Assembly (NCBI GenBank): GCA_016934535.1
Contig: JAFGSQ010000042.1
Location: forward strand, 1 to 46,480
DNA: 46,480 bases
Direction: 5' to 3'
From: a candidate division WOR-3 bacterium
GTDB lineage: Bacteria > SDB-A
The position numbers and the translations under genes are program-made. Position 1 is the first letter of the stretch; each line of letters begins with the position of its first letter. Below, in pieces: positions 3,930 through 46,431 of this stretch. The notes under the pieces are model-generated. The model did not search any database. It was not told where the DNA came from and saw only the letters and a list, made by a program, of their open reading frames with translations.

Positions 3930-5232
3930 ATTTTTTCATCTTTCTGTAAAGCGTGGAAACGTCAATTCCGAGAACGCTTGCAGCTCTGTTCTTATTATCT
4001 TTGCACAATTTCAGCGTTTTTTGAATGGCTTCTCTCTCAATATCATCGAGAGAACCGAAACCGTAATTTTCCTTTCCAGCTTCCTCGCTGAAATCACCAA
4101 GGTTTATCGTCTCTCCGTCCGATAGAATGACTGCTTTTTCAATGAAGTTCTCAAGTTCCCTGATATTGCCTTTCCATGGTCTGGAAAGAAGGAATCTCTC
4201 GGATTCCGAAGAAAGTTTTCTTTTCAATCCGTGCTTTCTCGAGAAGTAACCGACAAAATATTCGGCAATCGGAATTATATCTTCTCTTCTCGACCTGAGC
4301 GGCGGGATTTCAACACTGACGACGTTGATCCTGTAGTAGAGATCTTCTCTGAATTTCTTGGCGTCCAGAAGCTTTTTCAAGTCTCTGTTTGTCGCCGCAA
4401 TAATTCTGACATCTATTTTCAGAGATGATGTGGATCCTATCGGATTTATTTCTTTCTCCTGAATGGCTCTGAGTACCTTGACTTGCGTTGAAACAGGAAT
4501 TTCTCCTATTTCATCCAGAAACAGCGTTCCTCCGTCGGCTATTTTGAATAAACCGTCCTTATCGGCGTGAGCACTTGTAAAAGATCCTTTTTTGTGCCCA
4601 AAAAGCTCGCTTTCAAGAAGAGTTTCCGGTATGGCGGCGCAATTGACGGTAACCATGGGTTTATTTCTTCGGACGCTCCATTGATGTATTAGTTTCGCTA
4701 TCATTTCCTTGCCCGTTCCTGTTTCACCGCTGAGTGTTATTGTTACGTCGGTGGGGGCGACCTTTTTTAGTTTTTCGATTATTGAAAATAGTCCGGAATC
4801 AAGCCCGATTATTTTTTTATTGCCGTCGAAAAAGAGATTTCTGAAATACTGCGCTTCTCTCTGAATGGAGTATTTTTCAATGGTTTTTCTCACTCTGGCT
4901 ATGAGTTCACTGACGTCAAAAGGTTTCATAAGATAATCGTCCGCTCCGAATCTTAGCGCCTGGACTGCCGATTCGATAGAGGCGTAAGCCGTAAGCAGAA
5001 TAAATCCGGTGTTCGGAGAATTCTTTTTAACCGTCTCAAGAACGTCTATTCCGCTTTTTTGAGGCATTTTTATATCGCTTATCACTATATCAAAATTCTC
5101 GTTTTCGATCATTGAAATTGCCGACGAGCCGGAATCGCACTCGACAGTCTGAAAACCTTCCTGTGACAAGGCCATTGAAATTACTTTAAGAAGACCTTTT
5201 TCGTCGTCTACAATGAGAATTTTCTTGTTCAA
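3916..5232 (-). CDS. pilR: Sigma54-dependent response regulator (receiver, AAA+, Fis HTH), PilR-like
   Basis: VDDE/SDIKMP/KPF receiver, GETGTGKE Walker A, ESELFGH, FLDEIGE, C-terminal STLYRK HTH; follows pilC and a sensor kinase. Confidence 0.8.
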
Positions 5233-6809: not shown

Positions 6810-6817
6810 GAAATTTA

Positions 6818-8041
6818 TTAGCCCGCGTGCTCCATGAAAGTCGACGCCATCGTGAAAATGGGCAGATACATAGCGACGACGAGACCTCCTATTACGACAC
6901 CGAGAACAATCATGATTATTGGCTCAAGAGCGGCCGTGAGGTTTTCCACTGCCTGATCAACTTCCTGGTCGTAGAAATCGGCGACTTTTGACAGCATAAC
7001 ATCCAACTGTCCGCTCTGTTCTCCTATTCTCACCATCTGAATAACCATCGGAGGGAATATTTTCTCTCTCGCGAGTGGTCCTGAAATGTCTTCTCCTTCG
7101 CTGATGGATGTTCTTGCGGCGTAAATAGCATTTTCTACAAGAGAATTCCCCGCTGTCTTGGCAGTTATTTCGAGCGAATCGAGAATAGCGACACCGCTTG
7201 ACAGAAGAGTCGAAAGAGTTCTCGAAAATCTCGCTATGGAAGATTTTCTGATAAGCGGTCCGAACACAGGGACAAGCAGCATTACTTTGTCTTTAATCAA
7301 CAATCCTTTCTTGGTTCTAACACCAAGTTTGTATCCGACTATAATACCGGCTATTACGATCAAAAACAGTACAAAATTTCCTCTCAGTACGTTTGAAATC
7401 ATCATTACTATCTGCGTCGGTAAAGGAAGATCCGCTCCAAGACCCTCGAACATAGACTTGAATGTCGGAAGAACGAACACGAGAATCGTCGCAACAGCTA
7501 AAATGGTCACTATTGTTATCATTGTCGGATAGATCATGGCGCCTCTGATTTTTGCCATCAATGCCGCGGATTTTTCCAGGTAAGTGGCAAGCCTTAAGAG
7601 GATGGTGTCGAGAGCACCGCCCTTTTCGCCGGCTTCGACCATGTTCACGTAAAGATCGGAAAAAAATCTTTTGTGCTTTCTCATAGCCTCGGCGAGAGTC
7701 GTTCCTCCTTCGACGTCCCCGGAAAGTTCTTTTAGCACCTTTTTGAAACCCGCGTTCTCTTCCTGTTCGTTTAATATCTCAAGACATCTCATCAAAGGAA
7801 GACCCGCATTTATCATGGTCGCAAATTGTCTCGTGAAAGCCGCCATTTCTTTGGTTCCGATACCAGTCGTAAGCTGGACTTCTTTCATCCTGTTGTAGAG
7901 AGTGTCTTTTCTCTTTATGGTGATCGGAGTTATTTTTTTCGATCTGAGCTGAATTTTGGCGTCCTGTATCGAGGAGGCAGTGAGTTCTCCAGACTCCTCA
8001 CTACCGTCGCTTCTAACACCTTTAAACACGAAGACAGCCAT
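6818..8041 (-). CDS. pilC: Type IV pilus inner-membrane platform protein PilC (GspF family)
   Basis: FTRQFATMINAGLPL, AGEKGGALD, AMIYP, GEQSGQLD, EPI..., AMYLPIF. Confidence 0.95.
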   Translation of the reverse strand: MAVFVFKGVRSDGSEESGELTASSIQDAKIQLRSKKITPITIKRKDTLYNRMKEVQLTTGIGTKEMAAFTRQFATMINAGLPLMRCLEILNEQEENAGFKKVLKELSGDVEGGTTLAEAMRKHKRFFSDLYVNMVEAGEKGGALDTILLRLATYLEKSAALMAKIRGAMIYPTMITIVTILAVATILVFVLPTFKSMFEGLGADLPLPTQIVMMISNVLRGNFVLFLIVIAGIIVGYKLGVRTKKGLLIKDKVMLLVPVFGPLIRKSSIARFSRTLSTLLSSGVAILDSLEITAKTAGNSLVENAIYAARTSISEGEDISGPLAREKIFPPMVIQMVRIGEQSGQLDVMLSKVADFYDQEVDQAVENLTAALEPIIMIVLGVVIGGLVVAMYLPIFTMASTFMEHAG

Positions 8042-8059
8042 GGAAACCTCCTGACTATT

Positions 8060-9139
8060 TTATTTCTTTGTTTTTCTGAAATCTTCCATCATTCTCTCGA
8101 GTTCCTCCGGATTCCTCGAGTTGGCAAAAGCCTGATCAAGATTAATATCCTTTTTCGACCAGCGGTCGAGAAGGCATTCGTTCATTGTCATCATTCCGAA
8201 TTTCTTTCCGGCCTGCATGAAATTGTAAATCTGATGGATTTTATCCTCTCTTATCAAAGCCGAGACCGCCGGCGTGATTACTAGTATTTCCATGGTCAGC
8301 GCTCTGCCTCCTTTGATTTTCGGGATCAAAGCTTGTGTAAGCACCGCTCTGAGAACAAAAGCGAGCTGGGACCTGACCTGAGACTGTCTGTTTGTCGGAA
8401 AAATATCTATAATTCTGTTAATGCTTTCTACCGCCGAATTCGTGTGAAGCGTACCGAAGGTCAAGTGTCCTGTTTCTGCTATAGTGAGTGCCGCTTCAGT
8501 TGTTTCGAGGTCTCTCATCTCGCCGACCATGACTACATCGGGGTCCTGTCTGAGGACGTATTTCAAAGCCGAAGTAAAGGATTTGGTGTCCGACCCGACC
8601 TGCCTTTGATTGACTATGCACGTTCTGTGCTGAAAAGTGTATTCGATAGGATCTTCGACGGTCACTATGTGTTTTTTCTTTTCCATGTTTATTTTATTTA
8701 TGAGAGCCGCTAGAGTTGTAGACTTGCCGCTACCCGTCGGACCGGTAACAAGGACGAGACCTTTTGCATAATTTGCCCATTCCGCAACTATCCTCGGCAG
8801 GCCGAGTTTGTCGAAAGACAGTATTTCGAAAGGGATTGTCCTTATGGCCATTGATACGTTGCCTCTCTGAAGGAATGCGTTGGCTCTGAATCTGCTTACT
8901 CCGGGTATTCCGAAACTCAGATCCAGTTCGTGTTCGTTTTCGAATTTCTTCTTCTGTTCGTCGTTGAGAATGGAATAAACAAGGGCTTGAGCGCTGTCAG
9001 GAGACAGTTTAGGATATTGTGAAGGCAGTATGTCGCCGTCTATCCTGAATACAGGAGGAGAGCCCACGGTCAAATGAAGGTCCGATGCTTTTCTTTCCAC
9101 CATTTCCCTGAGCAGATTTTCTATGCTTATAGTCGCCAT
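8060..9139 (-). CDS. pilT: Type IV pilus retraction ATPase PilT
   Basis: ASDLHL, GPTGSGKSTT, EDPIE, LRQDPDVVMVGEMRD, AETGHL..TLHT, AIRNLIRE-like AVSALIRE. Confidence 0.95.
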   Translation of the reverse strand: MATISIENLLREMVERKASDLHLTVGSPPVFRIDGDILPSQYPKLSPDSAQALVYSILNDEQKKKFENEHELDLSFGIPGVSRFRANAFLQRGNVSMAIRTIPFEILSFDKLGLPRIVAEWANYAKGLVLVTGPTGSGKSTTLAALINKINMEKKKHIVTVEDPIEYTFQHRTCIVNQRQVGSDTKSFTSALKYVLRQDPDVVMVGEMRDLETTEAALTIAETGHLTFGTLHTNSAVESINRIIDIFPTNRQSQVRSQLAFVLRAVLTQALIPKIKGGRALTMEILVITPAVSALIREDKIHQIYNFMQAGKKFGMMTMNECLLDRWSKKDINLDQAFANSRNPEELERMMEDFRKTKK

Positions 9140-9150
9140 GTTTCCTCCTG

Positions 9151-10842
9151 TTACAGCGAAGATGTTTCGCGAATCATTTCTTCAAGGGTCGTCAGCCCTT
9201 TTTTTACCTTGTCGAGCGCGTCGTTTCTCATGGACACCATGCCTTCTTCTTCCGCAGCTCTCTTCAACGCCGTCGAAGATTCGTTGTCGACGACCATTTG
9301 CCTGAGTTTCTTTGAAATCGGCATAACCTCTGTTATGGCGACCCTCCCTTTATATCCTGTGTTGTTGCAAGTCCCGCACCCTCTTCCTTTGTAGAACACG
9401 GAATTTTTTATCTCTTCCTCGGACAGGCCTACTTCCACCAAAAATTTTTCCGGATAAACAAAAGGCGCCTTGCAGTTCGAACATATCTTTCTCACGAGCC
9501 TCTGGGCTTGAATCAGATTCAAAGACGCCGCGACCAGAAAAGGTTTCACCCCCATGTCGACAAGCCTGTTCACCGTAGACGGAGCGTCGTTAGTGTGAAT
9601 GGTCGAAAGGACCAGCTGTCCTGCAAGAGCGGCCCTGATGGCGATTTCCCCTGTTTCGGTGTCCCTTATTTCTCCTACCATTACGATGTCAGGAGCGTGC
9701 CTGAGGATCGATCTTAAAGCGCTCGGGAAATCAAAACCTATATCGGCGTTAATTGGGACCTGGTTTATTCCTCTGAGGTTATACTCAACGGGATCTTCTA
9801 CCGTTAGTATCTGAATGTTTGGTCTGTTAAGCCTGCTCAGAGCTGAATAAAGAGTCGTTGATTTTCCGCTTCCCGTAGGCCCCGTAATCAGAATAATTCC
9901 GTAGGGTCTTTCGAGGGAGTCTTCGAAATATTTTCTGGATTTTTCAGAAAAACCGAGGTCTTTCAAATCCACCATAAGGCTGCTTTTGTCAAGTATTCTC
10001 ATCACTATCTTTTCGCCTATAACCGTTGGAATGACACTTACCCTGAGGTCTATGTCTCTTCCTCTGAAACGCCATTGTATCCTGCCGTCCTGGGGTTTGA
10101 AATGTTCGGAAATGTCCATTTTTGAAAGTATCTTCACTCTTTGAATTATGGCGAGACTGAATTTTCCGGGGGCGTCGACGACTTCCTGCAAAACGCCGTC
10201 AATTCTCATCCTCACTCTCTGTCTTTTACCAATGAATTCAATGTGTATATCACTGGCCTTTCTCGCAACCGCGTCGTCAATTATGTATTTGACGAAATCG
10301 GCGGCCTGAGAAGACGTACCGAAAGACACTTCTTCTTCGTATTCTTCCTCTACCTGCAGATCTCCTCTGTCTTTTTCGGTTGTCGCCTGGCTTTCCATCG
10401 CAACCAATCCTCCTCCGTGCAGAGGATAATACTTTTCCAGATATTTTTGCATCTGGCTGTCGCGTACGTAACATCTTTCCGGATTCAGTCCCGTAAGGAA
10501 ACTGACTTCGGCGAAAGCTTCTTCGTCGAGAGGATTGACCATTCCTAGAACAAGCGATTTTCCCTTTCTTTGAACAGGGAATATCCTGTACTTATTCGCT
10601 ATTTCAGGTTTGATAAGCTCGAGTACAACGGGATCAGGATTCTGTTCGGTGAGATCTATAGCTTTAAAATTGTAGTCTTTTGCGAAAAAAGACATCAATC
10701 TCTGTTCGGAGATGTGGCCGCTTTTAATTAAAACCGCTATATCCGAATCACCGGTTTCGTTCCTTTTTTCTTCGACCGCGTTAATCTGGCTTTTCGTTAT
10801 CAGTCTCGCGTTCAACAGTGCGTTCAAAAGTTCCTTGGCCAT
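9151..10842 (-). CDS. pilB: Type IV pilus assembly ATPase PilB, second copy (degenerate MshEN N-terminus)
   Basis: ASDIHIE, PQDGRI, GPTGSGKSTT, EDPVEY, GEIRD, CSNC...CGTC Zn motif. Confidence 0.9.
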   Translation of the reverse strand: MAKELLNALLNARLITKSQINAVEEKRNETGDSDIAVLIKSGHISEQRLMSFFAKDYNFKAIDLTEQNPDPVVLELIKPEIANKYRIFPVQRKGKSLVLGMVNPLDEEAFAEVSFLTGLNPERCYVRDSQMQKYLEKYYPLHGGGLVAMESQATTEKDRGDLQVEEEYEEEVSFGTSSQAADFVKYIIDDAVARKASDIHIEFIGKRQRVRMRIDGVLQEVVDAPGKFSLAIIQRVKILSKMDISEHFKPQDGRIQWRFRGRDIDLRVSVIPTVIGEKIVMRILDKSSLMVDLKDLGFSEKSRKYFEDSLERPYGIILITGPTGSGKSTTLYSALSRLNRPNIQILTVEDPVEYNLRGINQVPINADIGFDFPSALRSILRHAPDIVMVGEIRDTETGEIAIRAALAGQLVLSTIHTNDAPSTVNRLVDMGVKPFLVAASLNLIQAQRLVRKICSNCKAPFVYPEKFLVEVGLSEEEIKNSVFYKGRGCGTCNNTGYKGRVAITEVMPISKKLRQMVVDNESSTALKRAAEEEGMVSMRNDALDKVKKGLTTLEEMIRETSSL

Positions 10843-12551
10843 CAGAGCTCCGCCGTTTCTTTTATGACTTCTTCGATGTCTGTTTCCTGCCCCATGACCG
10901 ACATGAAACCGTGTTCTCTCAAAGTCAGCATCCCTTCTTCAACTGCCGTTTTGTTCAGTTCGTCAGTCGTAGCCCTGCTGAGAACCAGTTCTTTCAGCCT
11001 GGGAGACATATACATCACCTCAAAAATGGCTTTTCTTCCCGCGTAGCCTGTTTTTTGGCACATTTCACAGCCTACTCCCTTGAAAAGCGCGACTTGGCTG
11101 AATCTTGTCGGATCGACTCCAACCTCCTTGAGCACCTGCTCGGAAATTCTTATTTGCCTGCGGCAGTGAGGACAGGTCTTTTTTATAAGTCTTTGAGCGA
11201 CCACGAGAGTGAGCGTTGAAGCGATTAGAAACGGTTCGACTCCCATATCTATAAGTCTCGTCACTGTCGCCGCCGCAGTATTGCTGTGGACTGAAGACAT
11301 GACAAGATGACCTGTCAGAGACGCTCTGACAGCTATTTCGGCGGTTTCTCTGTCCCTTATTTCTCCCACCATTATCACGTTCGGGTCCTGTCTCAAATAA
11401 GCCCTGAGAGCCAAAGCGAAAGTCAGTCCCGCCGACTGGCTCATCTGAACCTGATTTATTCCCTGAAGTATATACTCGACGGGGTCTTCTGCTGTTGTTA
11501 TGTTTATTTCGACGCTGTTTATTTCTGTCATCCCGGCATACAATGTCGTGGTCTTCCCGCATCCGCTTGGTCCGCTTACGATGATTATTCCATAAGGATT
11601 ATGTATGGCTTTTTTGAAATACTCAAATCCCCTCATGTCCATTCCGAGTTCGTCTATCTTGAAGCTGACGTTTGATTTATCCAGCACTCTGACTGCGATT
11701 TTCTCTCCGAAAATTGTCGGGATCACCGCCATCCTGAAATCGACCAGCCTGCTCCCTGATTTCATTGTCAATCTTCCGTCCTGTGGTCTTCTTCTCTCGT
11801 CCGGTTTCATGCCTCCTAAAAGTTTTATGTACGTTGTTATGCTCTGCCCCAGGGCAAAGTTGGGGGATGCAATCTCGTGAAGAAGTCCGTCAATTCTGAA
11901 ACGGACACGCAGTTCTTTTTCATACGGTTCTATGTGAAAGTCTGAACATTTTTTGTCAACAGCCATTTTCAGCATTTTTGAAACAAACTGCTGGGCGGGC
12001 GCTTTTGATTCGCTTTCGAGCCTGTCGAGATCCATTATGCCTTTGCCGATTTCCACCGAATCTGCACCTTGAAGTATGTCCGCGTCGTCGACAACTTCTA
12101 CTGTCGAAGTAACCACGTCGAGGGCTCCCTGAACCTTATAATATTTGCTCAACGCATTCAAAACGGCTATTTCAGCCGCGACGACAGGTTCTATCTCATA
12201 TCCGAGTCCAAACCTGACGGCTTCAATAGCACCTTGATCGAACGGATTGACCATTGCTATCCTCAGTGTTTTCCCCACCCTGGAAATTGGTATCATCTGA
12301 TGTTTCAAAGCCATGTTCGCGGGGACCAGTTTAATAATGTTCCTGTCCAGATTGAGAATGCCTATCTCGATACCCGGTACGTGAAGTTTTTTTCCGAGAG
12401 TCTGCACAAGTTGTGCTTCTTTAATATAACCGAGGTGTATAAGAATACTACCCAATCTGCCAGTGCCCCTTCGCTGCTGTTCCACGAGGGCCTTATCAAG
12501 CTGATCTTTTGTAATCAGCTTTTCAGTTACAAGAATTTCGCCAATTTTCAT
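10842..12551 (-). CDS. pilB: Type IV pilus assembly ATPase PilB, first copy (intact MshEN-like N-terminus)
   Basis: KIGEILV..RLGSILIHLG N-terminus, SDFHIEP, GPSGCGKTTT, LRQDPN..GEIRD, CPHC...CEMC. Confidence 0.9.
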   Translation of the reverse strand: MKIGEILVTEKLITKDQLDKALVEQQRRGTGRLGSILIHLGYIKEAQLVQTLGKKLHVPGIEIGILNLDRNIIKLVPANMALKHQMIPISRVGKTLRIAMVNPFDQGAIEAVRFGLGYEIEPVVAAEIAVLNALSKYYKVQGALDVVTSTVEVVDDADILQGADSVEIGKGIMDLDRLESESKAPAQQFVSKMLKMAVDKKCSDFHIEPYEKELRVRFRIDGLLHEIASPNFALGQSITTYIKLLGGMKPDERRRPQDGRLTMKSGSRLVDFRMAVIPTIFGEKIAVRVLDKSNVSFKIDELGMDMRGFEYFKKAIHNPYGIIIVSGPSGCGKTTTLYAGMTEINSVEINITTAEDPVEYILQGINQVQMSQSAGLTFALALRAYLRQDPNVIMVGEIRDRETAEIAVRASLTGHLVMSSVHSNTAAATVTRLIDMGVEPFLIASTLTLVVAQRLIKKTCPHCRRQIRISEQVLKEVGVDPTRFSQVALFKGVGCEMCQKTGYAGRKAIFEVMYMSPRLKELVLSRATTDELNKTAVEEGMLTLREHGFMSVMGQETDIEEVIKETAEL

Positions 12552-12573
12552 AAATATCTTTTACCGATAAAAA

Positions 12574-12602
12574 ATTATTAAATGCTGTTCTTGTTTTGTC
12601 AA
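12574..12602 (-). promoter_or_regulatory. Putative sigma70 promoter of the pil operon
   Basis: Minus strand TTGACA (12602-12597), N17, AATAAT (12579-12574), ending 22 nt before the pilB ATG. Confidence 0.5.
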
Positions 12603-12657
12603 TTAAATTGATCGTGATCAGACATTTTTTGTCTTTTACACATTGGCTTTAAAAAGT

Positions 12658-13155
12658 TCAAAGAGTTATTAAACTTTCAATTTTTGAATACTTCGCGGGT
12701 CCAATACCCCTGACGTTCTGTATGTCCTGTTTTCTCGAGAACGGACCGTGCTCGTTTCTGTAATCAATTATTCTTTGTGCAATAACCGGACCTATTCCGG
12801 GAAGTGTTTCGAGCATTCTGGCGTCAGAGGAGTTTATGTTCACTGTTGCAAGAGGAGCGCTCTGATTTTCACGAGCTTCCGGAATGCTCTCTTGTTCTCC
12901 GGACATGACAGACGTTAAAACAGTGTCTACAGGCAAACAAGATGAATCGACAATCGTGTCTCTAAAACAGATCTCCTGTAAAAAAGCTGTTTTCTCCTGC
13001 AGAAAAATAAAAGCAGAACTCCCATTTTCGTGTTCGCTTATGAATTCTAGCCGGCTTTTTCTTTTTTCCCTTATCATCAAGCCGAATATCCCTATTGAAA
13101 AAACGATCAAAAGGCAGCAAAGTAGAGCCAGTTCATCCTTAGACAGTGATTCCAT
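12658..13155 (-). CDS. comEA: ComEA-family helix-hairpin-helix DNA-binding/uptake protein
   Basis: N-terminal TM, then VNINS..LETLPGIGPVIAQRIIDYR..GPF..VRGIG. ATG at 13155 preferred over the TTG at 13185. Confidence 0.85.
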   Translation of the reverse strand: MESLSKDELALLCCLLIVFSIGIFGLMIREKRKSRLEFISEHENGSSAFIFLQEKTAFLQEICFRDTIVDSSCLPVDTVLTSVMSGEQESIPEARENQSAPLATVNINSSDARMLETLPGIGPVIAQRIIDYRNEHGPFSRKQDIQNVRGIGPAKYSKIESLITL

Positions 13156-36600: not shown

Positions 36601-39600
36601 CTAATAGCTGATTTCAGCCACATATTTGACTTTGCCTCCGTATTCGATAATACTCTCTATCTCGCTAACAAGAGATTTGTCGAAACAGACGCCCAAGTCG
36701 CTTTTTAGTTTGATTCTCCTGTTCCTTTCTTTAATCAGAAAAAACACTTTGTATTCTCCCGAATGAAGATCTATCGCATCTTTTATGTCTTTCAGCACCT
36801 GGTCTCTTACTTCGCCTTCCTTCAGTTCTATTTCCAGGCTTTTTATACATTCCGACAAAGCCTCGTCGACAACCCTTATTTCGTCGGCGTAAAGAATTCT
36901 GTTTCCATCGACGTTCTTCAATTCGCCTTTGACGGCCAAAAGTTTACCTACATGTTTGTTAATCCAGTTTTTAGGTTCTTTGCTCATTTTATCGCTTAAG
37001 AATACATCGAGTTTAGTGTTTTTTTCTTCGAGAGTCAGATTGACACCTTCCTTTACATTTTCGGCTTTCATCAACAATCCGGCAACGAAACACCCGTTGT
37101 TGCCGTTTCTGATGAAATCCCCCAATCCGTATAATCCCCGGAAACTTATGAATTTTTTGTATTCGTCCAAGGGATGAACATCGAAACTGAAACCGAATGC
37201 TTCGTTCTCCGCCTCAAGTTTTTCTTTATAAGTCCAGGCGCTTCCTGTCATTTTGTCTTTGTCAATGTCAATGAGCTCATTTTCGCTGAAAAGCGCCATC
37301 TGACCCATGAGGATCTGTTTTTTTTTCGAAGAAGCTCTTTCAAAACCCTCCTCTATTGAGTCGAGCAGTTTCTTTCTGTCAAGATTTATCTCGTCGAAAG
37401 CTCCTGCTTTCACGAGAAACTCGACGGTTCTTTTTGTCGCCGAGTTGAAACTTATTCTGCCGAGGAAATCATCGAAGCTTTTAAACGATCCGCTTTTTTC
37501 CCTTTCAGAGACAATTTCGTGAGCAGCTTTTTCACCGACGTTTTTTATCGCTCCGAGAGCGTATCGCACTCCTTTTTTCTCGACCAGAAAATTTACCCCC
37601 GAATGATTTACGGAAGGAGGAAATATTTTTATCTTTAATCGCCTCGCTTCATCAATGAATTCGGCTATTTTATCGGTGTTTGAAATTTCAGTGGTCAGTG
37701 TAGCCGCAAGAAATTCAACTGGAAAATGCGTTTTCATATAAGCAGTATAATACGCGAGAAAAGCGTAACCGGCTCCGTGCGATTTGTTGAAACCATAACC
37801 GGCGAATGGTTCTATCATTTCCCATATACCCTGAGCTGTCTTAGCGTTGATAGATCTTTCCTGCGCTCCTTTCAAAAAGTTCTCTTTTTCGCTTTCCATC
37901 ACTTCTCTCTTTTTTTTACCCATGGCTCTTCGGAGGATGTCTGCTTTTCCAAGATTGTAACCGGCCACAGCACTTGTGATCTGCATGACCTGTTCCTGGT
38001 AGATAGGTATTCCGTAAGTTTCTTCCAGAATGTCTTTGAGGGATTCGTGTAAATAGTCCGATTTTTCCTTTTTGTTTTTCCTTGCAATGAATTTGTCTAT
38101 GTGATCCATCGGACCCGGCCTGTATAGAGATATAATTGCTATTATTTCCTGAAGTGATTTCGGCTTCAGCTGAACGCACAGATTTTTCATTCCCCTTGAT
38201 TCAAGCTGGAAAATGCCTTTTGTCTCACCCGAAGAAAGAAGTTGAAACGTTCTTTTATCGTCGAGAGGGAGTGTTTCGACGTCGACGGTTTCTCCCCTCG
38301 TTTCGCTGACGAGCTCAACCGTTCTCTCAATGGCAGTGAGAGCGGTCAAGCCGAGTATGTCGACTTTAATAAGGCCGACATCGGTTATCGAATCCATGTC
38401 GAACTGGCAGACGATCTGTCCGAACTTGTCTTTCCTGAGAGGAACAAAATCTGTAAGGTTGCCTGGAGCTATTATAAAACCGGCCGCGTGAATTCCAGGT
38501 TGTCTTTTCAACCCTTCAAGTTTAGAGGCAATCTGAATGAGTCTTTCAAGCCTTTTGTCTGAATCCACTTTGTCCTTGAAGCCGCTCTGATTGCCTGAAT
38601 AAATCCACTCGACATCGGAACGAGGATCATCCGAAGGTTTGTCTATGAAATACGTCTCCGGCATTTTCGATGAAAGCTCATCAATCTCCTTGGGAGTCAA
38701 ACCCAGGACTTTCGCAACGTCTCTTACCACCTGTCTCGCGCCAAGGCTCGCGGCAGTGCCAATGTAACAGACAGCGTCCTCCCCGAATCTCCTGACCATA
38801 TATTCTATAACCATGTTACGTTTGTCGTCGGCAAAATCCAGATCTATGTCGGGGGCCGTTATCCTTTCCGGGTTTAAAAACCTTTCGAACAGAAGACCGT
38901 AATTCATCGGATTTATCGTCACTATATCGAGGCAGTAAAGGACCATGCTTCCGACGGCTGATCCCCTTCCGGGGCCGACGCTGATTTTCATTTTTTTAGC
39001 TTCTCTTACAATATCGGCAATTATGAGGAAATATCCTGCATACCCTGTTTGTGAAATCACATCGAGCTCAGCTGTTATTCTTTTTCCTGCTTCATCGGGA
39101 ACTCCGGATAGAAATCTTTTTTTAGCGCCTTCCCAAGTCAGGTGTTTCAGAAATTCCATCGGGGTGTCAAACCCTTCGGGAATTTTAAAGTCAGGCAGTC
39201 TCGGTGAGTCAGGATACAGTTTCATCTCAAAGTGACATTTTTCCGCTATTTTTACCGTGTTTTCAAGCGCTTCAGGATACTCTTTGAACAATTCGTACAT
39301 TTCTTCCTGTGTCCTGAAATATATGCCCTTGGGACTCGTCAGTCTGTCTTTGTCCTCAAATGTCTTTTTTGTGTTAACGCAAAGAAGAGCTTCGTGAGCA
39401 AGATGATCTTCCTTATCCAGGAAGTGTATATCGTTCGTCGCCACTATACCGACACCGGTTTTTTTAGCCAGTTCGACTTGCGATCTGTTCAGGAATTCGT
39501 TTTCAGAAATCCCTATGTCCATTAATTCAAGAAAAAAATCACCTTTGAAAATCTCAGAATAGATTCCAGCGAATTTCATCGCCCCGGTCTCGTCGCCGGC

Positions 39601-40044
39601 CAGAATTCTTCTCGGAATTTCTCCGCTCATGCATCCTCCGAGAGCTATCAGACCTTCCGAATACTTTTCGAGAATTTCAGTATCAATTCTCGCTCTGCCC
39701 CAGTAATATCCGTCGAGGAAGCCTATGGAAGAAAGTTTGACGAGGTTTCTGTATCCCTGTTCGTTTCTGCACAAAAGAGTCAGGTGTCTGAATTCGGAAA
39801 TTCTGCTCTTAGCGGACACGCCTCCGGGGTCAACGTAGGATTCCATTCCAATTATGGGCTTTATTCCTTCCTTCTTGCACGTCTTGTAGAATTCCACGGC
39901 TCCGGACATGTTGCCGTGATCCGTTATGGCTATCGCTTTCATTTTCAAAGCAGACGCCTTCTTCACCAGTTTTTTTATTGAAATAGCTCCGTCGAGAAAA
40001 CTGTAATCTGAATGAACATGAAGATGAACAAAGTCTTTTGCCAT
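36601..40044 (-). CDS. dnaE: DNA polymerase III alpha subunit
   Basis: FVHLHVHSDYS PHP domain, GPGRGSA, FERFLNPER, PDIDLDF, GFNKSH, clamp-binding-like QMALF. Confidence 0.97.
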   Translation of the reverse strand: MAKDFVHLHVHSDYSFLDGAISIKKLVKKASALKMKAIAITDHGNMSGAVEFYKTCKKEGIKPIIGMESYVDPGGVSAKSRISEFRHLTLLCRNEQGYRNLVKLSSIGFLDGYYWGRARIDTEILEKYSEGLIALGGCMSGEIPRRILAGDETGAMKFAGIYSEIFKGDFFLELMDIGISENEFLNRSQVELAKKTGVGIVATNDIHFLDKEDHLAHEALLCVNTKKTFEDKDRLTSPKGIYFRTQEEMYELFKEYPEALENTVKIAEKCHFEMKLYPDSPRLPDFKIPEGFDTPMEFLKHLTWEGAKKRFLSGVPDEAGKRITAELDVISQTGYAGYFLIIADIVREAKKMKISVGPGRGSAVGSMVLYCLDIVTINPMNYGLLFERFLNPERITAPDIDLDFADDKRNMVIEYMVRRFGEDAVCYIGTAASLGARQVVRDVAKVLGLTPKEIDELSSKMPETYFIDKPSDDPRSDVEWIYSGNQSGFKDKVDSDKRLERLIQIASKLEGLKRQPGIHAAGFIIAPGNLTDFVPLRKDKFGQIVCQFDMDSITDVGLIKVDILGLTALTAIERTVELVSETRGETVDVETLPLDDKRTFQLLSSGETKGIFQLESRGMKNLCVQLKPKSLQEIIAIISLYRPGPMDHIDKFIARKNKKEKSDYLHESLKDILEETYGIPIYQEQVMQITSAVAGYNLGKADILRRAMGKKKREVMESEKENFLKGAQERSINAKTAQGIWEMIEPFAGYGFNKSHGAGYAFLAYYTAYMKTHFPVEFLAATLTTEISNTDKIAEFIDEARRLKIKIFPPSVNHSGVNFLVEKKGVRYALGAIKNVGEKAAHEIVSEREKSGSFKSFDDFLGRISFNSATKRTVEFLVKAGAFDEINLDRKKLLDSIEEGFERASSKKKQILMGQMALFSENELIDIDKDKMTGSAWTYKEKLEAENEAFGFSFDVHPLDEYKKFISFRGLYGLGDFIRNGNNGCFVAGLLMKAENVKEGVNLTLEEKNTKLDVFLSDKMSKEPKNWINKHVGKLLAVKGELKNVDGNRILYADEIRVVDEALSECIKSLEIELKEGEVRDQVLKDIKDAIDLHSGEYKVFFLIKERNRRIKLKSDLGVCFDKSLVSEIESIIEYGGKVKYVAEISY

Positions 40045-40878
40045 TTATTGTTCTTTCTTTTTCACTCTCAATTTGATTATCTTTTGTCTTGTAGCATCAA
40101 TAACTTCGAATTCGAGATTGCCGTCGGAAAATTTTTCACCTTTTTTGGGTATTTTTTCCTGTTTGTCGAGAACGAATCCCCCTACTGTGTTGTAATCTTC
40201 TGATTCGAGATTTAAGTTCAGCAGATCATTGAAATCGGAGAATTCCATCCGCGCGTTCACAAGATAAGAACCGTCCTCCTCCACAGAGAAATCTTCCTCT
40301 TCCTGTTCCCTCGTGTCTTCTATCTCCCCAATTATCTCTTCAACAAGGTCTTCAAGGGTCACAATTCCGCAGACCCCGCCGTATTCATCGACCACCATGG
40401 CAATTGAAAGATGCCTTTCCTGAAGGTCTTTTATTGTTTCCAGAACCGTTTTACTTTCCGGAATAAAATGAGGCAGACATGCAAAATCTATCGCTTTGTA
40501 AGGAGTTTCAAGAATTTCGTGCAGAAAAGGTATGACATCTTTTATTTTCAATATGCCCACTACGTCGTCAATGGTGTCCCCGTAAAGGGGTATTTTGCCG
40601 AAACGGTGAAGTGTGTACGCTTCTATTATTTCGTCTATTCCTGCCGTCGCAGGCAGAAAAACAGTTTCAACTCTCGGCACCATGATTTCCTCGACTCTTG
40701 TGCTCGTCAGATACATTACGCCCTTCAGAATGTCGGCCTCGGCTTCCGATATGATACCTGATTCTTTCCCTTTGTTTATTACGGTTTCGGCTTCTTTTTC
40801 CTTGTTTTCTTTTCTGTTCTTTATCAGTTCTCTAATAAATTCAATTATTTTTTTTCGTTTATTTGATTCTCCGTTCAT
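40045..40878 (-). CDS. corC: CBS-pair + CorC_HlyC domain protein (no DUF21 membrane domain)
   Basis: IMVPR, VVDEYGG..GIVTLEDLVEEIIGEI, YNTVGGFV. Confidence 0.8.
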   Translation of the reverse strand: MNGESNKRKKIIEFIRELIKNRKENKEKEAETVINKGKESGIISEAEADILKGVMYLTSTRVEEIMVPRVETVFLPATAGIDEIIEAYTLHRFGKIPLYGDTIDDVVGILKIKDVIPFLHEILETPYKAIDFACLPHFIPESKTVLETIKDLQERHLSIAMVVDEYGGVCGIVTLEDLVEEIIGEIEDTREQEEEDFSVEEDGSYLVNARMEFSDFNDLLNLNLESEDYNTVGGFVLDKQEKIPKKGEKFSDGNLEFEVIDATRQKIIKLRVKKKEQ

Positions 40879-41552
40879 GTCTCGGTCCCTTTTTCATCCT
40901 CTCTTATTTTTATGTTTTTTCTGGGCGTGATTATGCCCCCTGAAACAACCACTCTGATCCCCTCCTCAATAGTCAGTTCTGTCATCTTTATTTCCTCCTC
41001 GGGAAGCAGGAGATAAAAACCTGAAGTCGGATTCGGCGTCGTGGGCACAAACACCGACCCGAGATTTGTTTTTTTTCCGTCTTCGGAACATTTTTCAACC
41101 CACGATTTAGTGTTGGTCAAAAATCCTAACGACCAGCATCCCGTTCTGGGATATTCTATCATGACAACTTTCTGAAAAGCTCTTTTGTCGAGAAAAAATG
41201 TTTCGGTAAGCTCTTTCACTCCGTTGTAAATAATCTTTATGAGCGGCAGTTTTGTCATGAGGGCATTAGTCCATCTGATTAAAATCTTGCCTATGAATGT
41301 TCTCGCGACGACTCCGGTTATAAATATAAATGCGACCAGTAATATAAAACCCATCAGGTCCTCGACCAATCTGGGAAAAGGAAGATACCTTGCGAAAGGT
41401 TCCAATACAGTCCCGCCAATCTCGATGATGAACTTGAACACGAAAACAGTCAGACCTATCGGAAGAAGAGTCACCACTCCCGTAATAAAAATATTCCTGA
41501 TTTTGGCTTTAAATCCATGCCTGGAACGAGGCAATCCGTCTCGATCGTCCAT
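40875..41552 (-). CDS. DUF502-family membrane protein
   Basis: FITGVVTLLPI.LT, IEYPR.G.W.LGF.T, VFVPTTPNPTSGF, VVSGG. Confidence 0.85.
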   Translation of the reverse strand: MDDRDGLPRSRHGFKAKIRNIFITGVVTLLPIGLTVFVFKFIIEIGGTVLEPFARYLPFPRLVEDLMGFILLVAFIFITGVVARTFIGKILIRWTNALMTKLPLIKIIYNGVKELTETFFLDKRAFQKVVMIEYPRTGCWSLGFLTNTKSWVEKCSEDGKKTNLGSVFVPTTPNPTSGFYLLLPEEEIKMTELTIEEGIRVVVSGGIITPRKNIKIREDEKGTET

Positions 41553-41556
41553 GACT

Positions 41557-42174
41557 TTATTTCAAAATGCGGAGCCAGTCGTGCATCAAAAAATAAAACC
41601 TTCCTATCAACAGGGATATTCTTGCCATCACAGTGTATCCGAATGACGCACCGAATGTGATCATAAGAAAAATCATACCTGTTCTCGCTCCCGCTCTGAA
41701 AAGCCATTTATGCTCTATGGAGAAAAAGAAATAGAAAAGACCTGTGGCCGTACCGACGAGAAGAAGTATCTCGCCTGCGGAAGAAAATAAGTTTCCGTTC
41801 CACAGCGGGACAATGGCTGAATAAACCTGTTCGTAAAGATTCGATTTCAGAAACGTAACGAAGCCGTAGCCGGCTCCTATTCCGACAACAAAAGCAATTG
41901 AGATGTGAGAAAACCACCTTGTTTTATCAAAAAGCTGAAGGATAATGAACAGAGAAAGGGCTGCGGGAAATACGTAAAGAAGATTTCCTCCCCTGAGAGG
42001 CATTATCAGATTTGGAACCACGACGTCGTGCCAGCCCTGAACCAGCAAGTAGCCCGCTGATACTCCGACGTAGATCGATTCGGCAATTTTGTAAAAAACG
42101 TTGTCTTTGTACAAAAAACTGAATATCGCGAGAGTCAGAAAACCCGCGATCCAGATCCCAACCGTCTCAGTCAA
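41557..42174 (-). CDS. Conserved hypothetical polytopic membrane protein (cassette gene 4)
   Basis: TTG start overlapping the upstream stop; about 6 hydrophobic segments; SFLYKDN motif; three GxxxGY motifs. Confidence 0.8.
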   Translation of the reverse strand: MTETVGIWIAGFLTLAIFSFLYKDNVFYKIAESIYVGVSAGYLLVQGWHDVVVPNLIMPLRGGNLLYVFPAALSLFIILQLFDKTRWFSHISIAFVVGIGAGYGFVTFLKSNLYEQVYSAIVPLWNGNLFSSAGEILLLVGTATGLFYFFFSIEHKWLFRAGARTGMIFLMITFGASFGYTVMARISLLIGRFYFLMHDWLRILK

Positions 42175-43003
42175 TTTTTTTCCCTCTCTTCTGTATGAAA
42201 TAAATTACGTTGCCGAATAAAATAAAAGCTATTATGCATATATGCGCTATCGACTGCGCGTCCATTCCGCTCGACGCCATGCCGGGACTATCGAGAAGCT
42301 GTTCGTAATCCGCCGCTCCTGCCATCCCTCCGATTAGACCGATAAGTTGACCCGAATTGAAATACGGAGAATACGCCGGCGCGCTGACCGCTGTGCAACC
42401 GGCTATAATATTTTTTCCGTATTTATCCTTGCCTATCTGAACCCAACCAATCACACCGGGATCTCCGGCCGACAATGTAACTATCACGGCGATTTTGTCG
42501 AGATTGAAATTGACTTCTTTAAGGACCTCAATGTCTTTTGTGCTTCTGCCCGTCAAATCTCTGGGACACGTTTTTTTTATGTCTCCAGCAATATTGTCAA
42601 TCGCGACAACTCCCCCCGACTTATATCCCAGGTTGACGAAATTTATCCACCGTTCCTTGTCGTATTTTAGCGCCGCTTCATTGAGCGCGTTTTCCGCGAA
42701 TCTCACTCCCTGGGGCCACAGGGCGACCGTTATGACGTTAACGTTTTTTGAAAATGCATGCTCAATAATCGATTTACCCATAGGATATAATTCAGGCGCT
42801 GCGGCAGGATCAAAATCGAAGGAAACAAGTATGATAGAATTTTCGGGCAGGCTGTCTATGAAAGCGAAGGAAGAATAAACCGCCTTGGAATCCTCCTTGT
42901 CGACAATTATCGGTATCCGGAGAGGAAAGAGAAGCGGAACAACTACAGCGAGCGCTATGAAAAGAAATATTATCCTTCTGTCAAGTTCGAATATTTTCTT
43001 CAA
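42167..43003 (-). CDS. Conserved hypothetical membrane-anchored alpha/beta protein (cassette gene 3), probable distant paralogue of the DUF6754-like domain
   Basis: N- and C-terminal TM helices; NLGYKSG, GCTAVSAP, SGQLIGLIGGMAGAADYE, MDAQS. Confidence 0.8.
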   Translation of the reverse strand: MKKIFELDRRIIFLFIALAVVVPLLFPLRIPIIVDKEDSKAVYSSFAFIDSLPENSIILVSFDFDPAAAPELYPMGKSIIEHAFSKNVNVITVALWPQGVRFAENALNEAALKYDKERWINFVNLGYKSGGVVAIDNIAGDIKKTCPRDLTGRSTKDIEVLKEVNFNLDKIAVIVTLSAGDPGVIGWVQIGKDKYGKNIIAGCTAVSAPAYSPYFNSGQLIGLIGGMAGAADYEQLLDSPGMASSGMDAQSIAHICIIAFILFGNVIYFIQKRGKKID

Positions 43004-43614
43004 TTCAGGTATGACCTTTCAATGCCGAATATTATCCTCAGTGACGTAGCTATAACGCCCAGAGCGGCGCCGATCATTATTGCTCTCTGCCCAGCAGTGT
43101 TTGGAATTTCCATTATCCAGGCCTGCGCCGCCGGAAGATACGAAAAAATTATTTTTCCTATGGGTACCCTTCCGAGCATAACTATTATCGCTGCTGTCAG
43201 CAGGAGGCCTGCTTCGAGATTCCTCGCTCTGAATGCGCGAAAAGACGCCGATGCGACAAAAAAAGCAAGAAGAGAGAACATCGTCGCATTCAACGGAGTG
43301 TAAAAATGCCTGAAAATAAAATCAAACGCCGAGCCTTCCTCCATACCTCCTCCCCATCCTGCAAATACGGTGACTAGAAGCGTGAAAATAATGACGGCGG
43401 AATAAAACCAACCCCTCCTCTTTTTCATCATCTTCAGGAAATTCACTTTCAGAAGGTTCAAAATCCCCAATATCATTGCAAAGACCGCGACGACCATGTA
43501 CCAATTCTTGAGAGTGTTGGCCGCCTCTCCAACCGGGTAACGAGGAACGAAAAACGACGCGATTATAATCATCCCGCTGACGAATGTTATTGCGAGCGGT
43601 ACGTATCTTTTCAT
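43000..43614 (-). CDS. Conserved hypothetical polytopic membrane protein (cassette gene 2)
   Basis: About 6 hydrophobic segments; TMFSLLAFFVASASFRAFR and GQRAIMIG..LG...SLRIIFGIER; ATGA overlap with the next gene. Confidence 0.8.
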   Translation of the reverse strand: MKRYVPLAITFVSGMIIIASFFVPRYPVGEAANTLKNWYMVVAVFAMILGILNLLKVNFLKMMKKRRGWFYSAVIIFTLLVTVFAGWGGGMEEGSAFDFIFRHFYTPLNATMFSLLAFFVASASFRAFRARNLEAGLLLTAAIIVMLGRVPIGKIIFSYLPAAQAWIMEIPNTAGQRAIMIGAALGVIATSLRIIFGIERSYLN

Positions 43615-43632
43615 GTTAAAAAACCGCCTTTG

Positions 43633-44940
43633 TTATCCCGTAAAAAAAATATTTTTAATAATATTTACCCCGAACGAAGCGAGAATACTGCCTGCGACGA
43701 TAGCCGCTATTGCGGCGGCTTTTCCGAAATCCTGCGCCTTCAGACTTCCGATCAAGTGAGGATCGTTCGACATGTAGGCGCTGGCGGCGAAAAATTCTTC
43801 GCCGATTAAAGTGTAGTCGCAAGCCGCAACAAAAAAGGGCAGTTGTGAAGGGTCGGCGGTCCCCGATATCTGTATGGCTCCAATTGAATGTCCGGTTTCA
43901 GCCAATATCAGGGATTCGGCATAAAAATGACCCATAAGAAAAACAGTGGCCGGTTTCTCTCTGACCATTATTCCGTCAACCGCGGCCGCGTATCCGAATT
44001 GATCACCGGTAAGATAGAAAACCGAATTTTCATCGTAGGAGTCCGGTCTACCTTCCTGAATGTATGCCTGTCTGACTATTTCTTTTGCCGTGTTGTAAGC
44101 TACAGGGGCGATGGAAGGAACAGACAATTTGCTCTCATAATTAGCCACTCTTCTTGCGACTCTGCCGAGAATTATCATTCCCGCAATGGTTTGAACATCA
44201 TCCATGTCCATTATACCTGGGATGAACAACACATCCTTACCCATCTCGGTGGCTCTGCCGATGGCTTCGTCGACGGCATCAATTCCGCTCAGTTTTCTTA
44301 TGAAATACTTCTTTCCTCTGCCGGCGCTTCTTATGAAAAAAATGAGAAAAAAAGTAAATATAAGGCTTCCAGCAAACATCGAAATGCTCGACTTGGAAAA
44401 CCACGGTTTGTAATAGCTCATTTTTTCAGATTCGGCAGAAGTCAGGTTATGGTGTCCGTCAAAACAAGCAATAGCAAAATAACTGTATTTTTTTCCTTCG
44501 AGAATGTCTTCGTCTGCGTAAAGAGACGAATCCATCTTTAAAGAAACCGTGTCATTTCCGCACACTTTAAAAAGCATGACACTGTCGGGATAGATCCATT
44601 CTCTTCTGCCGTCTTTCACTGGGGGAAGTTCTGTGTAAATTCCCGTGCTGTCCAAACCGAATATCCCGTATGATATCTCAAACCTGAAAGTGCCGCTTTG
44701 TTCCGAAGAAAACTTCGCGGTTTCTATCTTGATTACTGAAGGAAAATTCCTCAAACAAAGTGTGTCGTCATAAAAAGGGATTTCAGTGATCCCGTCAGTT
44801 TCCTCTTCTTCCCGCGCCTCCTGAGAAGCTGAAACAGCAGTTTCCCGTTGAGCTGGAACGATTATTTTTGAAACAAAAAATGAAACTGCCGACGACAACA
44901 AAAAAAGGAACAGCAATAAAACGCCTATTGTTTTCGACAT
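43633..44940 (-). CDS. Membrane protein with FN3-like extracytoplasmic region and C-terminal DUF6754-like domain (cassette gene 1)
   Basis: N-terminal hydrophobic segment, YADEDILEGKKYSYFAIA (FN3-like), TM, then IRKLSGIDAVDEAIGRATEMG...LIGEEFFAASAY...SLKAQD. Family name recalled from the motif, not searched. Confidence 0.75.
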   Translation of the reverse strand: MSKTIGVLLLFLFLLSSAVSFFVSKIIVPAQRETAVSASQEAREEEETDGITEIPFYDDTLCLRNFPSVIKIETAKFSSEQSGTFRFEISYGIFGLDSTGIYTELPPVKDGRREWIYPDSVMLFKVCGNDTVSLKMDSSLYADEDILEGKKYSYFAIACFDGHHNLTSAESEKMSYYKPWFSKSSISMFAGSLIFTFFLIFFIRSAGRGKKYFIRKLSGIDAVDEAIGRATEMGKDVLFIPGIMDMDDVQTIAGMIILGRVARRVANYESKLSVPSIAPVAYNTAKEIVRQAYIQEGRPDSYDENSVFYLTGDQFGYAAAVDGIMVREKPATVFLMGHFYAESLILAETGHSIGAIQISGTADPSQLPFFVAACDYTLIGEEFFAASAYMSNDPHLIGSLKAQDFGKAAAIAAIVAGSILASFGVNIIKNIFFTG

Positions 44941-45063: not shown

Positions 45064-46401
45064 CTATTGTGTGTCCTTTGAATGCTTTCTGTAGAAAACC
45101 TCGAGAAAATGATGGCATTGCTGAGGCCTGTAAAGCCCGTTCATAATTGCCTTTGCCATGTGTTCGCACGACATGTAACCGCACGCGGCGCAGTTTTTTA
45201 TGTCTTCTTCGGTGAATTTTTCCATTTCCTCGTACAGAGCCTTTATCCCGTCTTCGTCCGGGTCTTCTAGTGTTTTGTAATTCTCGGATTTGTCCGTGTA
45301 TTTTCTCGAAAAATCTACGTCATTCATGTCTTCGAGTATTTTCTGGAGTTTTGAAAGAGCGTCCGGGTCAGGATAATTCTCTTTTTGCTGTTTTTCGAGC
45401 CTTTCACTCTGCAGTTTCAGTATCTCGTCTGTCGTCCTTTCGTCGTAATTCGTCCCCGTGCCTCTGTTGCAGCCGTGAAGACAGTTCAGTATGTCGACGA
45501 GAATTACGTCGCATTTTTTATCTTTTATTTCTTTTTCGAGCTCCTCGAAAAATTCCTCGTAAATTTCCTTGCCTTCCGTCCTTCTCACCTGATGCATTTT
45601 AAGCGGCACGTTATATCTTTTGAATGTCTCAAAAAGGCCTCCGGGCTGTGAATACAGAATACCTCTCTCCGCTTCCATCGGTCCGTCAAAATCCGTCGCG
45701 GGAAATTTTGAAAGATCGATTCCGTTTTTCTCCAGATATTTTTTAAGATTGGTTATTGTGACATTGTATGTTATCTGGCCCTTCGTGTTCGGGTCCTGAA
45801 ATTCGCGGCTTTTTGCTATGCAGGGGCTTATGAAGGCATGTTTCATTCCAGGGTGTTTTTTGTGGACCCATGCTGAAATGTCCATAACAGGACTGCCTGT
45901 CGGGGCTAAATAGGGTAAAAGTTCCGGTTTGTATATCTCTATAAAACTCACCACGGCAGGGCAGGGTTGAGCTATGACAGGTGTTTTAGCTCCCGCCTGT
46001 ATGGCTTTCAAATACTGATACGTTGTTATTTCGGCGCCGAAAGAGACGTCGAAGTTCATCTTGACACCAATCGATTTGAGCCAGCCCAAAAGATTCTTGA
46101 GCTGTCCCGGGAAATTTACGTCTACAGCTGGCGCTACGAGAGCGGCAATGTTCTCGCCTTTTTTCAGGTCTTCTATGAATCTTTCCGTGTCATCAACTAT
46201 GATTCTCGCATCGTGAGTACATGCTCTGACACAGTTCCCACAGCCAATGCAGAGATCGTGATTTACGGTGATGCCTTTCTCCAGGTCGGAAGCGTCGTTG
46301 CAATACTTGACCGGGCACACCTGAATGCAAACGTGACATTGAACGCACTTCTCACTGTCTACATCTACGACAGTCGGCAGGTGAAATTTCATCTCCGGCA
46401 T
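45064..46401 (-). CDS. [FeFe]-hydrogenase-like protein, putative sensory group C/D type (2x[4Fe-4S], H-domain, C-terminal FeS motif)
   Basis: CVQCHVCIQVCP and CIGCGNCVRAC; P1 AQPCPA, P2 SPCIAKSRE, P3 ILNCLHGC; Cx2Cx4Cx16C. GGAGG favours ATG 46401 over 46413. Confidence 0.82.
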   Translation of the reverse strand: MPEMKFHLPTVVDVDSEKCVQCHVCIQVCPVKYCNDASDLEKGITVNHDLCIGCGNCVRACTHDARIIVDDTERFIEDLKKGENIAALVAPAVDVNFPGQLKNLLGWLKSIGVKMNFDVSFGAEITTYQYLKAIQAGAKTPVIAQPCPAVVSFIEIYKPELLPYLAPTGSPVMDISAWVHKKHPGMKHAFISPCIAKSREFQDPNTKGQITYNVTITNLKKYLEKNGIDLSKFPATDFDGPMEAERGILYSQPGGLFETFKRYNVPLKMHQVRRTEGKEIYEEFFEELEKEIKDKKCDVILVDILNCLHGCNRGTGTNYDERTTDEILKLQSERLEKQQKENYPDPDALSKLQKILEDMNDVDFSRKYTDKSENYKTLEDPDEDGIKALYEEMEKFTEEDIKNCAACGYMSCEHMAKAIMNGLYRPQQCHHFLEVFYRKHSKDTQ

Positions 46402-46431
46402 TGCATCCTCCATTTTTATTCTTATAAAATA

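Follow-up and report, generated by a model that had tools for sequence, protein, structure and literature searches.

Subunits A and C of an uncharacterised DUF6754 membrane cassette share a doubly anchored build in predicted opposite orientations, with no detectable sequence relationship

The 46,480-nucleotide stretch analysed here (the window) spans positions 1 to 46,480 of contig JAFGSQ010000042.1 of assembly GCA_016934535.1, from a candidate division WOR-3 bacterium. It carries on its minus strand a cassette of four genes, and an original prediction, made from the letters alone, had held genes 1 and 3 to be distant paralogues of opposite membrane topology. Gene 1 (subunit A, 43633..44940) is an open reading frame (ORF) of 435 amino acids, and gene 2 (subunit B, 43000..43614) encodes a membrane protein of 204 amino acids with approximately six membrane helices. 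Gene 3 (subunit C, 42167..43003) starts at a TTG codon and encodes a protein of 278 amino acids, and gene 4 (subunit D, 41557..42174), likewise starting at TTG, encodes a further membrane protein with approximately six helices (205 amino acids). Genes 2 and 3 share 4 bases, at the stop of the former and the start of the latter, and genes 3 and 4 share 8.

Subunit A starts at its N-terminus with a signal/anchor helix and an exported Fn3 (fibronectin type III) domain. Its Rossmann-like DUF6754 domain comes next, set between two membrane helices, the second of which is C-terminal. The Fn3 domain (44401..44754, minus strand; residues ~63–180) is predicted to lie outside the cytoplasm. In the DUF6754 part (43645..44406, minus strand; residues 179–432), a membrane helix at ~183–207 is followed by the lysine- and arginine-rich (K/R-rich) stretch RSAGRGKKYFIRK, the alpha/beta domain and a hydrophobic helix at ~405–428. 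Subunit C is built of a short K/R-rich N-terminal tail, a membrane helix (residues 9–25), a Rossmann-like domain (~40–236), a second membrane helix (242–277) and a K/R-rich C-terminal tail. The build common to both, a membrane helix, an alpha/beta domain of about 200 residues and another membrane helix, is real.

The Pfam profile of DUF6754 (PF20539) matched gene 1 at profile positions 4–257 of 257 with an E-value of 7.3e-116 and 386.2 bits (cut-off 27). Genes 2, 3 and 4 matched no family in Pfam or NCBIfam, and for gene 3 Pfam gave no match at E-values up to 1. The close relatives found in the protein database carry the annotation candidate division WOR-3 bacterium. Of 80 loci in other species, 77 have all four genes on one strand in the order 1-2-3-4; the other three begin within the cassette (L021, for example, has only 1569 bases), and we think that contig ends cut them. 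The carriers among these loci are Nitrospira, Zixibacteria, Latescibacteria, Cloacimonadota, Stahlbacteria, TA06, Eisenbacteria, Binatia and others. A profile search for gene 3 relatives gave 5289 cluster representatives at 50% identity, and a relative is encoded in 568 stretches of the species-representative genome collection. Genes 1 and 3 are thus subunits A and C of a conserved, uncharacterised four-gene membrane cassette marked by DUF6754. Literature searches on DUF6754, PF20539 and PF13941 turned up no paper, and a search combining GlmL with fibronectin type III listed nothing relevant.

The proposed kinship had been read by eye from seven colinear pairs of blocks in genes 1 and 3. All seven lie where they were placed and are colinear, namely residues 236–242/57–63, 272–292/90–110, 307–313/125–131, 357–362/199–204, 367–370/212–215, 377–389/222–233 and 398–419/245–266 (gene 1/gene 3). 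The offset between the two proteins is 179–182 residues in the first half and 153–158 in the second, a change that fits a single insertion of ~25 residues in gene 3. Inside these hand-picked blocks, 21 of the 79 ungapped positions are identical, and in the first half of the domain the blocks fall where the predicted helices and strands of the two proteins correspond. The charged stretches are present as well, with RSAGRGKKYFIRK after the second membrane helix of gene 1, KK..RR before the first helix of gene 3 and KRGKK after its last.

A BLASTP comparison of gene 1 with gene 3 gave an E-value of 1.6 for its best colinear segment, corresponding to the C-terminal portion of the block alignment. 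Aligned to gene 3 with the BLOSUM62 matrix, the DUF6754 part scored 38 in the local and 20 in the end-free global mode. These scores were equalled by 100 of 400 full shuffles of gene 3 in the local and 61 of 400 in the global mode, and by 123 and 95 of 400, respectively, when gene 3 was shuffled within 10-residue windows, which preserves its hydrophobicity profile. The z-scores of the shuffle tests were 0.5–1.1, and the reversed gene 3 sequence even beat the true one in the local mode (40 versus 38).

For the comparison of profiles, two sets of family alignments were built. One, drawn from the protein database, comprised 118 domains of DUF6754 and 120 relatives of gene 3; the other, drawn from the 80 loci of other species, comprised 64 sequences for gene 1, 73 for gene 2, 82 for gene 3 and 79 for gene 4. 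The Nitrospirota loci L059 (5713–6495) and L068 (5841–6593) were omitted from one of the family alignments because their gene 4 frame leaves the family in its second half, which looks like a frameshift or an assembly error. The hhalign program gave genes 1 and 3 a probability of 1.4–3.2% at best. With the locus-derived profiles, the top match (1.4%) matched the N-terminal anchor of gene 1, with its K/R stretch, to the C-terminal anchor of gene 3, with its K/R tail; these positions are not equivalent. The colinear alignment, a near-exact copy of the blocks, was the second alternative, with a P value of 0.16 and a probability of 0.36%. Unrelated subunits of the same cassette gave P values of 0.079 (genes 1 and 4), 0.12 (genes 2 and 4) and 0.15 (genes 3 and 4), and the range of these controls overall was 0.015–0.5. 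When the canonical profiles were merged with those of the divergent cassette type described below, the colinear alignment of genes 1 and 3 reached P 0.058 (probability 0.9%; 1.8% for a non-colinear one), and the control pair of genes 2 and 4 reached P 0.015. We also considered genes 2 and 4 as a second duplicate pair and rejected the idea, as hhalign gave them a probability of 0.5–3% in a non-colinear alignment.

Searches of the organism's own 4566 ORFs of at least 80 amino acids gave the same picture. The hidden Markov model (HMM) of gene 1 placed gene 3 only at rank 84 (E-value 55), and with the HMM of gene 3 the best copy of gene 1 came at rank 364, the window's own gene 1 being absent from the list. 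As no sequence or profile test separates genes 1 and 3 from unrelated pairs, and their HMM–HMM alignment lies at the level of unrelated subunits, the claim of distant paralogy is not supported: judged by their sequences, genes 1 and 3 are not detectably related. The pattern of blocks is real and does not rise above chance, so that the observation is partly confirmed; chance alone yields such blocks between two proteins that each combine a Rossmann-like beta-alpha domain with hydrophobic anchors.

A positive control for these comparisons was provided by another contig of the same genome, C38 (locus L081). It carries a MutL/GlmL-like gene (38–1861), a gene for a protein of 375 amino acids (1868–2992), a second cassette (2998–6347), an extra copy of gene 1 (6356–7507) and a very divergent third cassette (7948–11015), the subunits of which share 21–24% identity with those of the window. 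All six genomes of the phylum set carry the divergent gene 3 type, and a metagenome scan added a single locus (L089); the bridging profiles of the divergent types were shallow (5–7 sequences). With these, hhalign recovered the cognate pairs of the gene 1 type at 96.6% (E-value 5.9e-10), the gene 2 type at 95.5% (1.5e-08), the gene 3 type at 42.5% (2.6e-4) and the gene 4 type at 96.5% (8e-10), and all 24 non-cognate pairs stayed at or below 2.7%. The best non-cognate pair was that of divergent genes 1 and 3 (P 0.017 over 133 colinear columns), a value to be expected as the minimum of 24 P values under the null. In the best alignment of divergent gene 1 with canonical gene 3, beta3-alpha3 of the one is set against beta2-alpha2 of the other, with a W-x-x-G-V..E.A match; as it lies one unit off the register of the blocks, beta-alpha units readily match by chance. 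A G-[DE]-P-G-V motif that follows beta4 in the divergent gene 1 type and in gene 3 was set aside as a chance likeness, being left unaligned by hhalign and missing from canonical gene 1. Between the copies within the genome, gene 1 retains 52% identity and gene 3 retains 30%; gene 1 is the slowest-evolving subunit of the cassette and gene 3 the fastest.

The fold of the two domains was examined in AlphaFold 2 (AF2) models. The model of gene 1 had a predicted local distance difference test (pLDDT) score of 68.8, weaker than that of the gene 3 model, and within it the Fn3 domain (residues 63–180) and residues ~220–336 were modelled fairly. The original prediction had placed the same fold on both faces of the membrane; both domains appear Rossmann-like where they are well modelled. 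Following the colinear alignment, the transmembrane helix, alpha0, beta1, alpha1, beta2 and alpha2 of the two models are in register, and the agreement assigned by DSSP fails beyond alpha2. The models thus suggest that at least the first half of the domain is Rossmann-like in both genes, and the Rossmann-like fold is generic and very common. A Foldseek search with the gene 1 model returned only Fn3 domains and weak rows. In the wider structural search with VIA-align, Fn3 likewise dominated, and the universal stress protein 1tq8 was the sole row on the DUF6754 domain. Searches of the ESM Atlas gave nothing beyond its own unnamed family for gene 3 and no usable match for the DUF6754 part with PF20539 excluded, and profile searches of the PDB with genes 2, 3 and 4 returned only chance rows.

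The distribution of lysine and arginine residues (K+R) was counted in the families. Among 64 relatives of gene 1, the 15 membrane-proximal residues contain 6.5 K+R on the side of the DUF6754 domain, compared with 0.8 for the Fn3 side and 0.4 for the C-terminal tail. A signal-like helix precedes the Fn3 domain, which argues that the N-terminal part of gene 1 lies outside. Among 82 relatives of gene 3, the N-terminal tail has 3.7 K+R per 10 residues and the C-terminal tail 3.3 per 8, or 7.0 per 18 for both tails versus 3.5 per 30 for the flanks on the domain side, and a D-R-R triplet ahead of the first helix is invariant. The K/R bias of the two families is thus opposite, as in an antiparallel pair.

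Large inserts of up to ~550 residues occur in some gene 3 relatives at a single loop close to residue 114, and 11 of the 22 long relatives were scanned against Pfam. One of them (P0285) has a CARDB domain, a cell-surface type, inside the domain at 29.2 bits (cut-off 22.7). Another gave a sub-threshold DUF2249 match (20 bits, cut-off 29.5), a third is taken up below, and the other eight gave no family. The family counts, the exported Fn3 domain and the CARDB insert all agree with the predicted placement of the gene 1 domain in the cytoplasm and the gene 3 domain outside, and by this prediction the two domains probably face opposite sides of the membrane. Besides the inserts, other rearrangements were seen among gene 3 relatives: P0255 consists of two gene 3 domains in tandem and P0388 is a fusion of genes 3 and 4, and both P0292 and P0388 are listed among the insert-bearing or rearranged relatives.

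The neighbourhood of the cassette in other genomes points to an ATPase. More than 1500 bases of DNA precede gene 1 in 59 loci; 45 of these have a gene for a 375-residue protein directly upstream and 48 have a MutL-like gene. PF13941 scored above its cut-off in all five distant cassette-bearing genomes. In the genome studied here, a MutL/GlmL member of 608 residues (434 bits, PF13941) adjoins the second cassette on contig C38, accompanied upstream of that cassette by the 375-residue soluble protein, which belongs to no family. Neither gene adjoins the cassette of the window, both being on contig C38, and this makes the window's cassette appear to be a satellite copy.

Taken together, the reading that we favour, at a probability of about 0.62, is that subunits A and C share a build without detectable kinship and lie in opposite orientations in an A-B-C-D complex of the DUF6754 type. 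In this complex, A would hold its exported Fn3 domain outside and its highly conserved Rossmann-like domain in the cytoplasm, and C would hold outside a Rossmann-like domain that evolves faster and tolerates inserts. The membrane core would be formed by B and D. The cytoplasmic domain of A may couple the complex to the actin-fold ATPase of the MutL/GlmL type and its 375-residue partner, as gene linkage suggests, and C and the Fn3 domain may handle a substrate or partner outside the cytoplasm. The cassette of the window would then be an extra copy borrowing the ATPase and its partner from another contig. The whole system could be a trans-membrane machine that uses ATP for transport or for mechanical coupling, which is not to say a proven transporter.

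Several points weigh against this favoured reading. The A and C families, encoded in the same operon, have in common a rare build with two anchors. The four comparisons of A-type with C-type profiles all gave lowish P values (0.037, 0.2, 0.065 and 0.017); their pooling was considered and dropped, because these comparisons depend on one another and because, in two of the four best alignments, the N-terminal anchor of one protein is set against the C-terminal anchor of the other. When gene 1 residues 208–336 are compared under the colinear alignment of the merged profiles, 71 of 102 positions have the same DSSP state, and shifted registers reach 61% at most. Residues 337–388 of gene 1, the most conserved stretch of its family, were modelled at a pLDDT below 50. 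One relative of gene 3 (P0320) has an insert of HEAT repeats, which are more usual in the cytoplasm but tell less than the CARDB domain does. Finally, the opposite topology is a matter of prediction throughout, and the ATPase coupling and any transport function are suggested by gene linkage.

The first two of these points, together with the agreement of the models, bear on the alternative that survives best, an unlikely one nonetheless: that genes 1 and 3 are ancient paralogues, a helix-domain-helix gene having been duplicated, one copy flipped by its K/R bias, and the two diverged beyond detection. Besides the rare build within one operon, it can draw on a colinear alignment that fits the predicted secondary structure from the transmembrane helix to alpha2, on the fall of the colinear P value from 0.16 to 0.058 with widened profiles and on the 133 colinear columns at P 0.017 of the divergent genes 1 and 3. 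The fast evolution of gene 3 (30% identity versus the 52% of gene 1) also makes a lost signal plausible. Against this, none of the comparisons is significant, and the control pair of B and D reaches P 0.015. The best alignment of divergent gene 1 with gene 3 is shifted by one beta-alpha unit, the AF2 model shows no gene 1 strands where beta5 and beta6 would be needed, and a domain of 200 residues on the other face requires export, which is a large step for a duplicate.

A stronger form of the same idea would derive A and C from one helix-domain-helix gene and have them inserted in opposite orientations, as an antiparallel paralogue pair with large soluble domains. A pseudo-two-fold axis in the plane of the membrane would relate them, each face would display the same Rossmann-like domain, and the pair would provide the coupling frame for a new class of membrane machine powered by an actin-fold ATPase. 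We hold this to be distinctly unlikely, the mirror-duplicate idea being most likely a generic resemblance. Were A and C mirror-image duplicates, the result would be a trans-membrane coupling device of unusual construction.

An arrangement with both domains on the same side of the membrane, for example with the gene 3 domain in the cytoplasm and its K/R tails outside or on the membrane surface, is highly unlikely. It would suit the HEAT-repeat insert of P0320 and the moderate K/R bias of gene 3, the domain-side flanks of which retain 3.5 K+R. It does not suit the K/R-rich character of both tails in 82 relatives, the invariant D-R-R or the CARDB insert, and in gene 1 the 6.5 K+R that follow the helix concur with the exported Fn3 domain that precedes it. 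That A and C are the antiparallel halves of an alternating-access transporter is extremely improbable in spite of their predicted opposite orientations and their place in the membrane, in one operon with two polytopic proteins, for they supply only two membrane helices each, the supposed repeat is a soluble domain unable to line a membrane pathway, neither matches any transporter family in Pfam, NCBIfam or the PDB, and the likely core subunits B and D are unrelated to each other (0.5–3%).

Around the cassette, the genes of the window follow one another closely. On the 3' side of gene 4 lie a DUF502 gene (40875–41552, minus strand), a CBS/CorC_HlyC gene (40045–40878, minus strand), the best NCBIfam rows of which are GldE and CorC, both below cut-off, and dnaE (36601–40044, minus strand). 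From gene 4 through DUF502 and CorC to dnaE (36601–41552), the gaps or overlaps are at most 4 bases. Upstream of gene 1 is a hydrogenase-like gene (45064–46413, minus strand) for a protein of 449 amino acids with two 4Fe-4S motifs and an iron-only-hydrogenase large-subunit domain (E-value 8.6e-36). As this protein scores far below the NCBIfam cut-off for true [FeFe] hydrogenases (144 versus 450 bits), it may be a sensory or hydrogenase-like protein. These neighbours (the hydrogenase-like gene, DUF502 and CorC) are common to only one of the 80 loci, L001, the closest relative listed.

On the other contigs, the divergent cassette of L081 is followed at 11012–12715 by a lipoate/biotin ligase-like gene (LplA-B_cat, E-value 4e-23) and a DUF4388 gene, and a similarly beginning ORF lies 3' of the divergent cassette in L084–L086 and L089, the loci reaching that far. 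The first part of the C38 stretch recurs on contig C49 (L082) with a DNA identity of 79%. This second occurrence could be a genuine paralogous locus, or it could come from a related strain that entered the bin (contamination 3.9%).

The widespread and strongly conserved cassette marks a gap in what is known of the envelopes of Nitrospira, WOR-3, Zixibacteria, Latescibacteria, Cloacimonadota and others. Its predicted two-sided architecture is solid in outline, with a conserved cytoplasmic domain, a variable outer domain and a linkage to an ATPase, and these parts offer targets for topology and structure work.

The system closest to the genes of the window is the DUF6754 cassette as catalogued in Pfam, where it is functionally uncharacterised. 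Gene 1 is a full-length match to that family and genes 2–4 stand in their customary order; the copy of the window differs in having neither a MutL-like gene nor a 375-residue gene of its own. MutL/GlmL (PF13941), which is like an actin-fold (ASKHA) ATPase, is encoded outside the window, and its putative role with the cassette is suggested by linkage. The domains of A and C resemble MT0777 (1kjn), short-chain dehydrogenases, KTN/RCK domains and the universal stress protein 1tq8 in fold class only, at identities of 5–17% (16% for 1tq8) and in a flat list of many unrelated families. Known members of this fold class are not known to carry a membrane-helix anchor at both ends.

The original prediction had seen in the two genes the inverted-repeat hallmark of alternating-access transporters. 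The inverted repeats of such transporters are recognisably alike bundles of membrane helices, not soluble domains. The part shared by A and C is a soluble domain flanked by two membrane helices in each protein, and the likely core subunits, B and D, are not related to each other; the supposed hallmark finds no support here. No transporter family was found for the four proteins in Pfam or NCBIfam, and none in the PDB profile searches.

Antiparallel pairs of membrane proteins offer another comparison. EmrE and its SMR relatives form such pairs, and so do RnfA/RnfE and NqrD/NqrE. Fluc/CrcB (PMC3755343) also belongs to these antiparallel or dual-topology membrane proteins. Genes 1 and 3 resemble pairs of the Fluc, SMR and Rnf types in being neighbouring operon genes predicted from their K/R bias to be oppositely oriented. 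The partners in those pairs are clearly homologous, small and almost wholly embedded in the membrane, whereas genes 1 and 3 show no detected homology and either protein consists mostly of a soluble domain, about 200 residues long.

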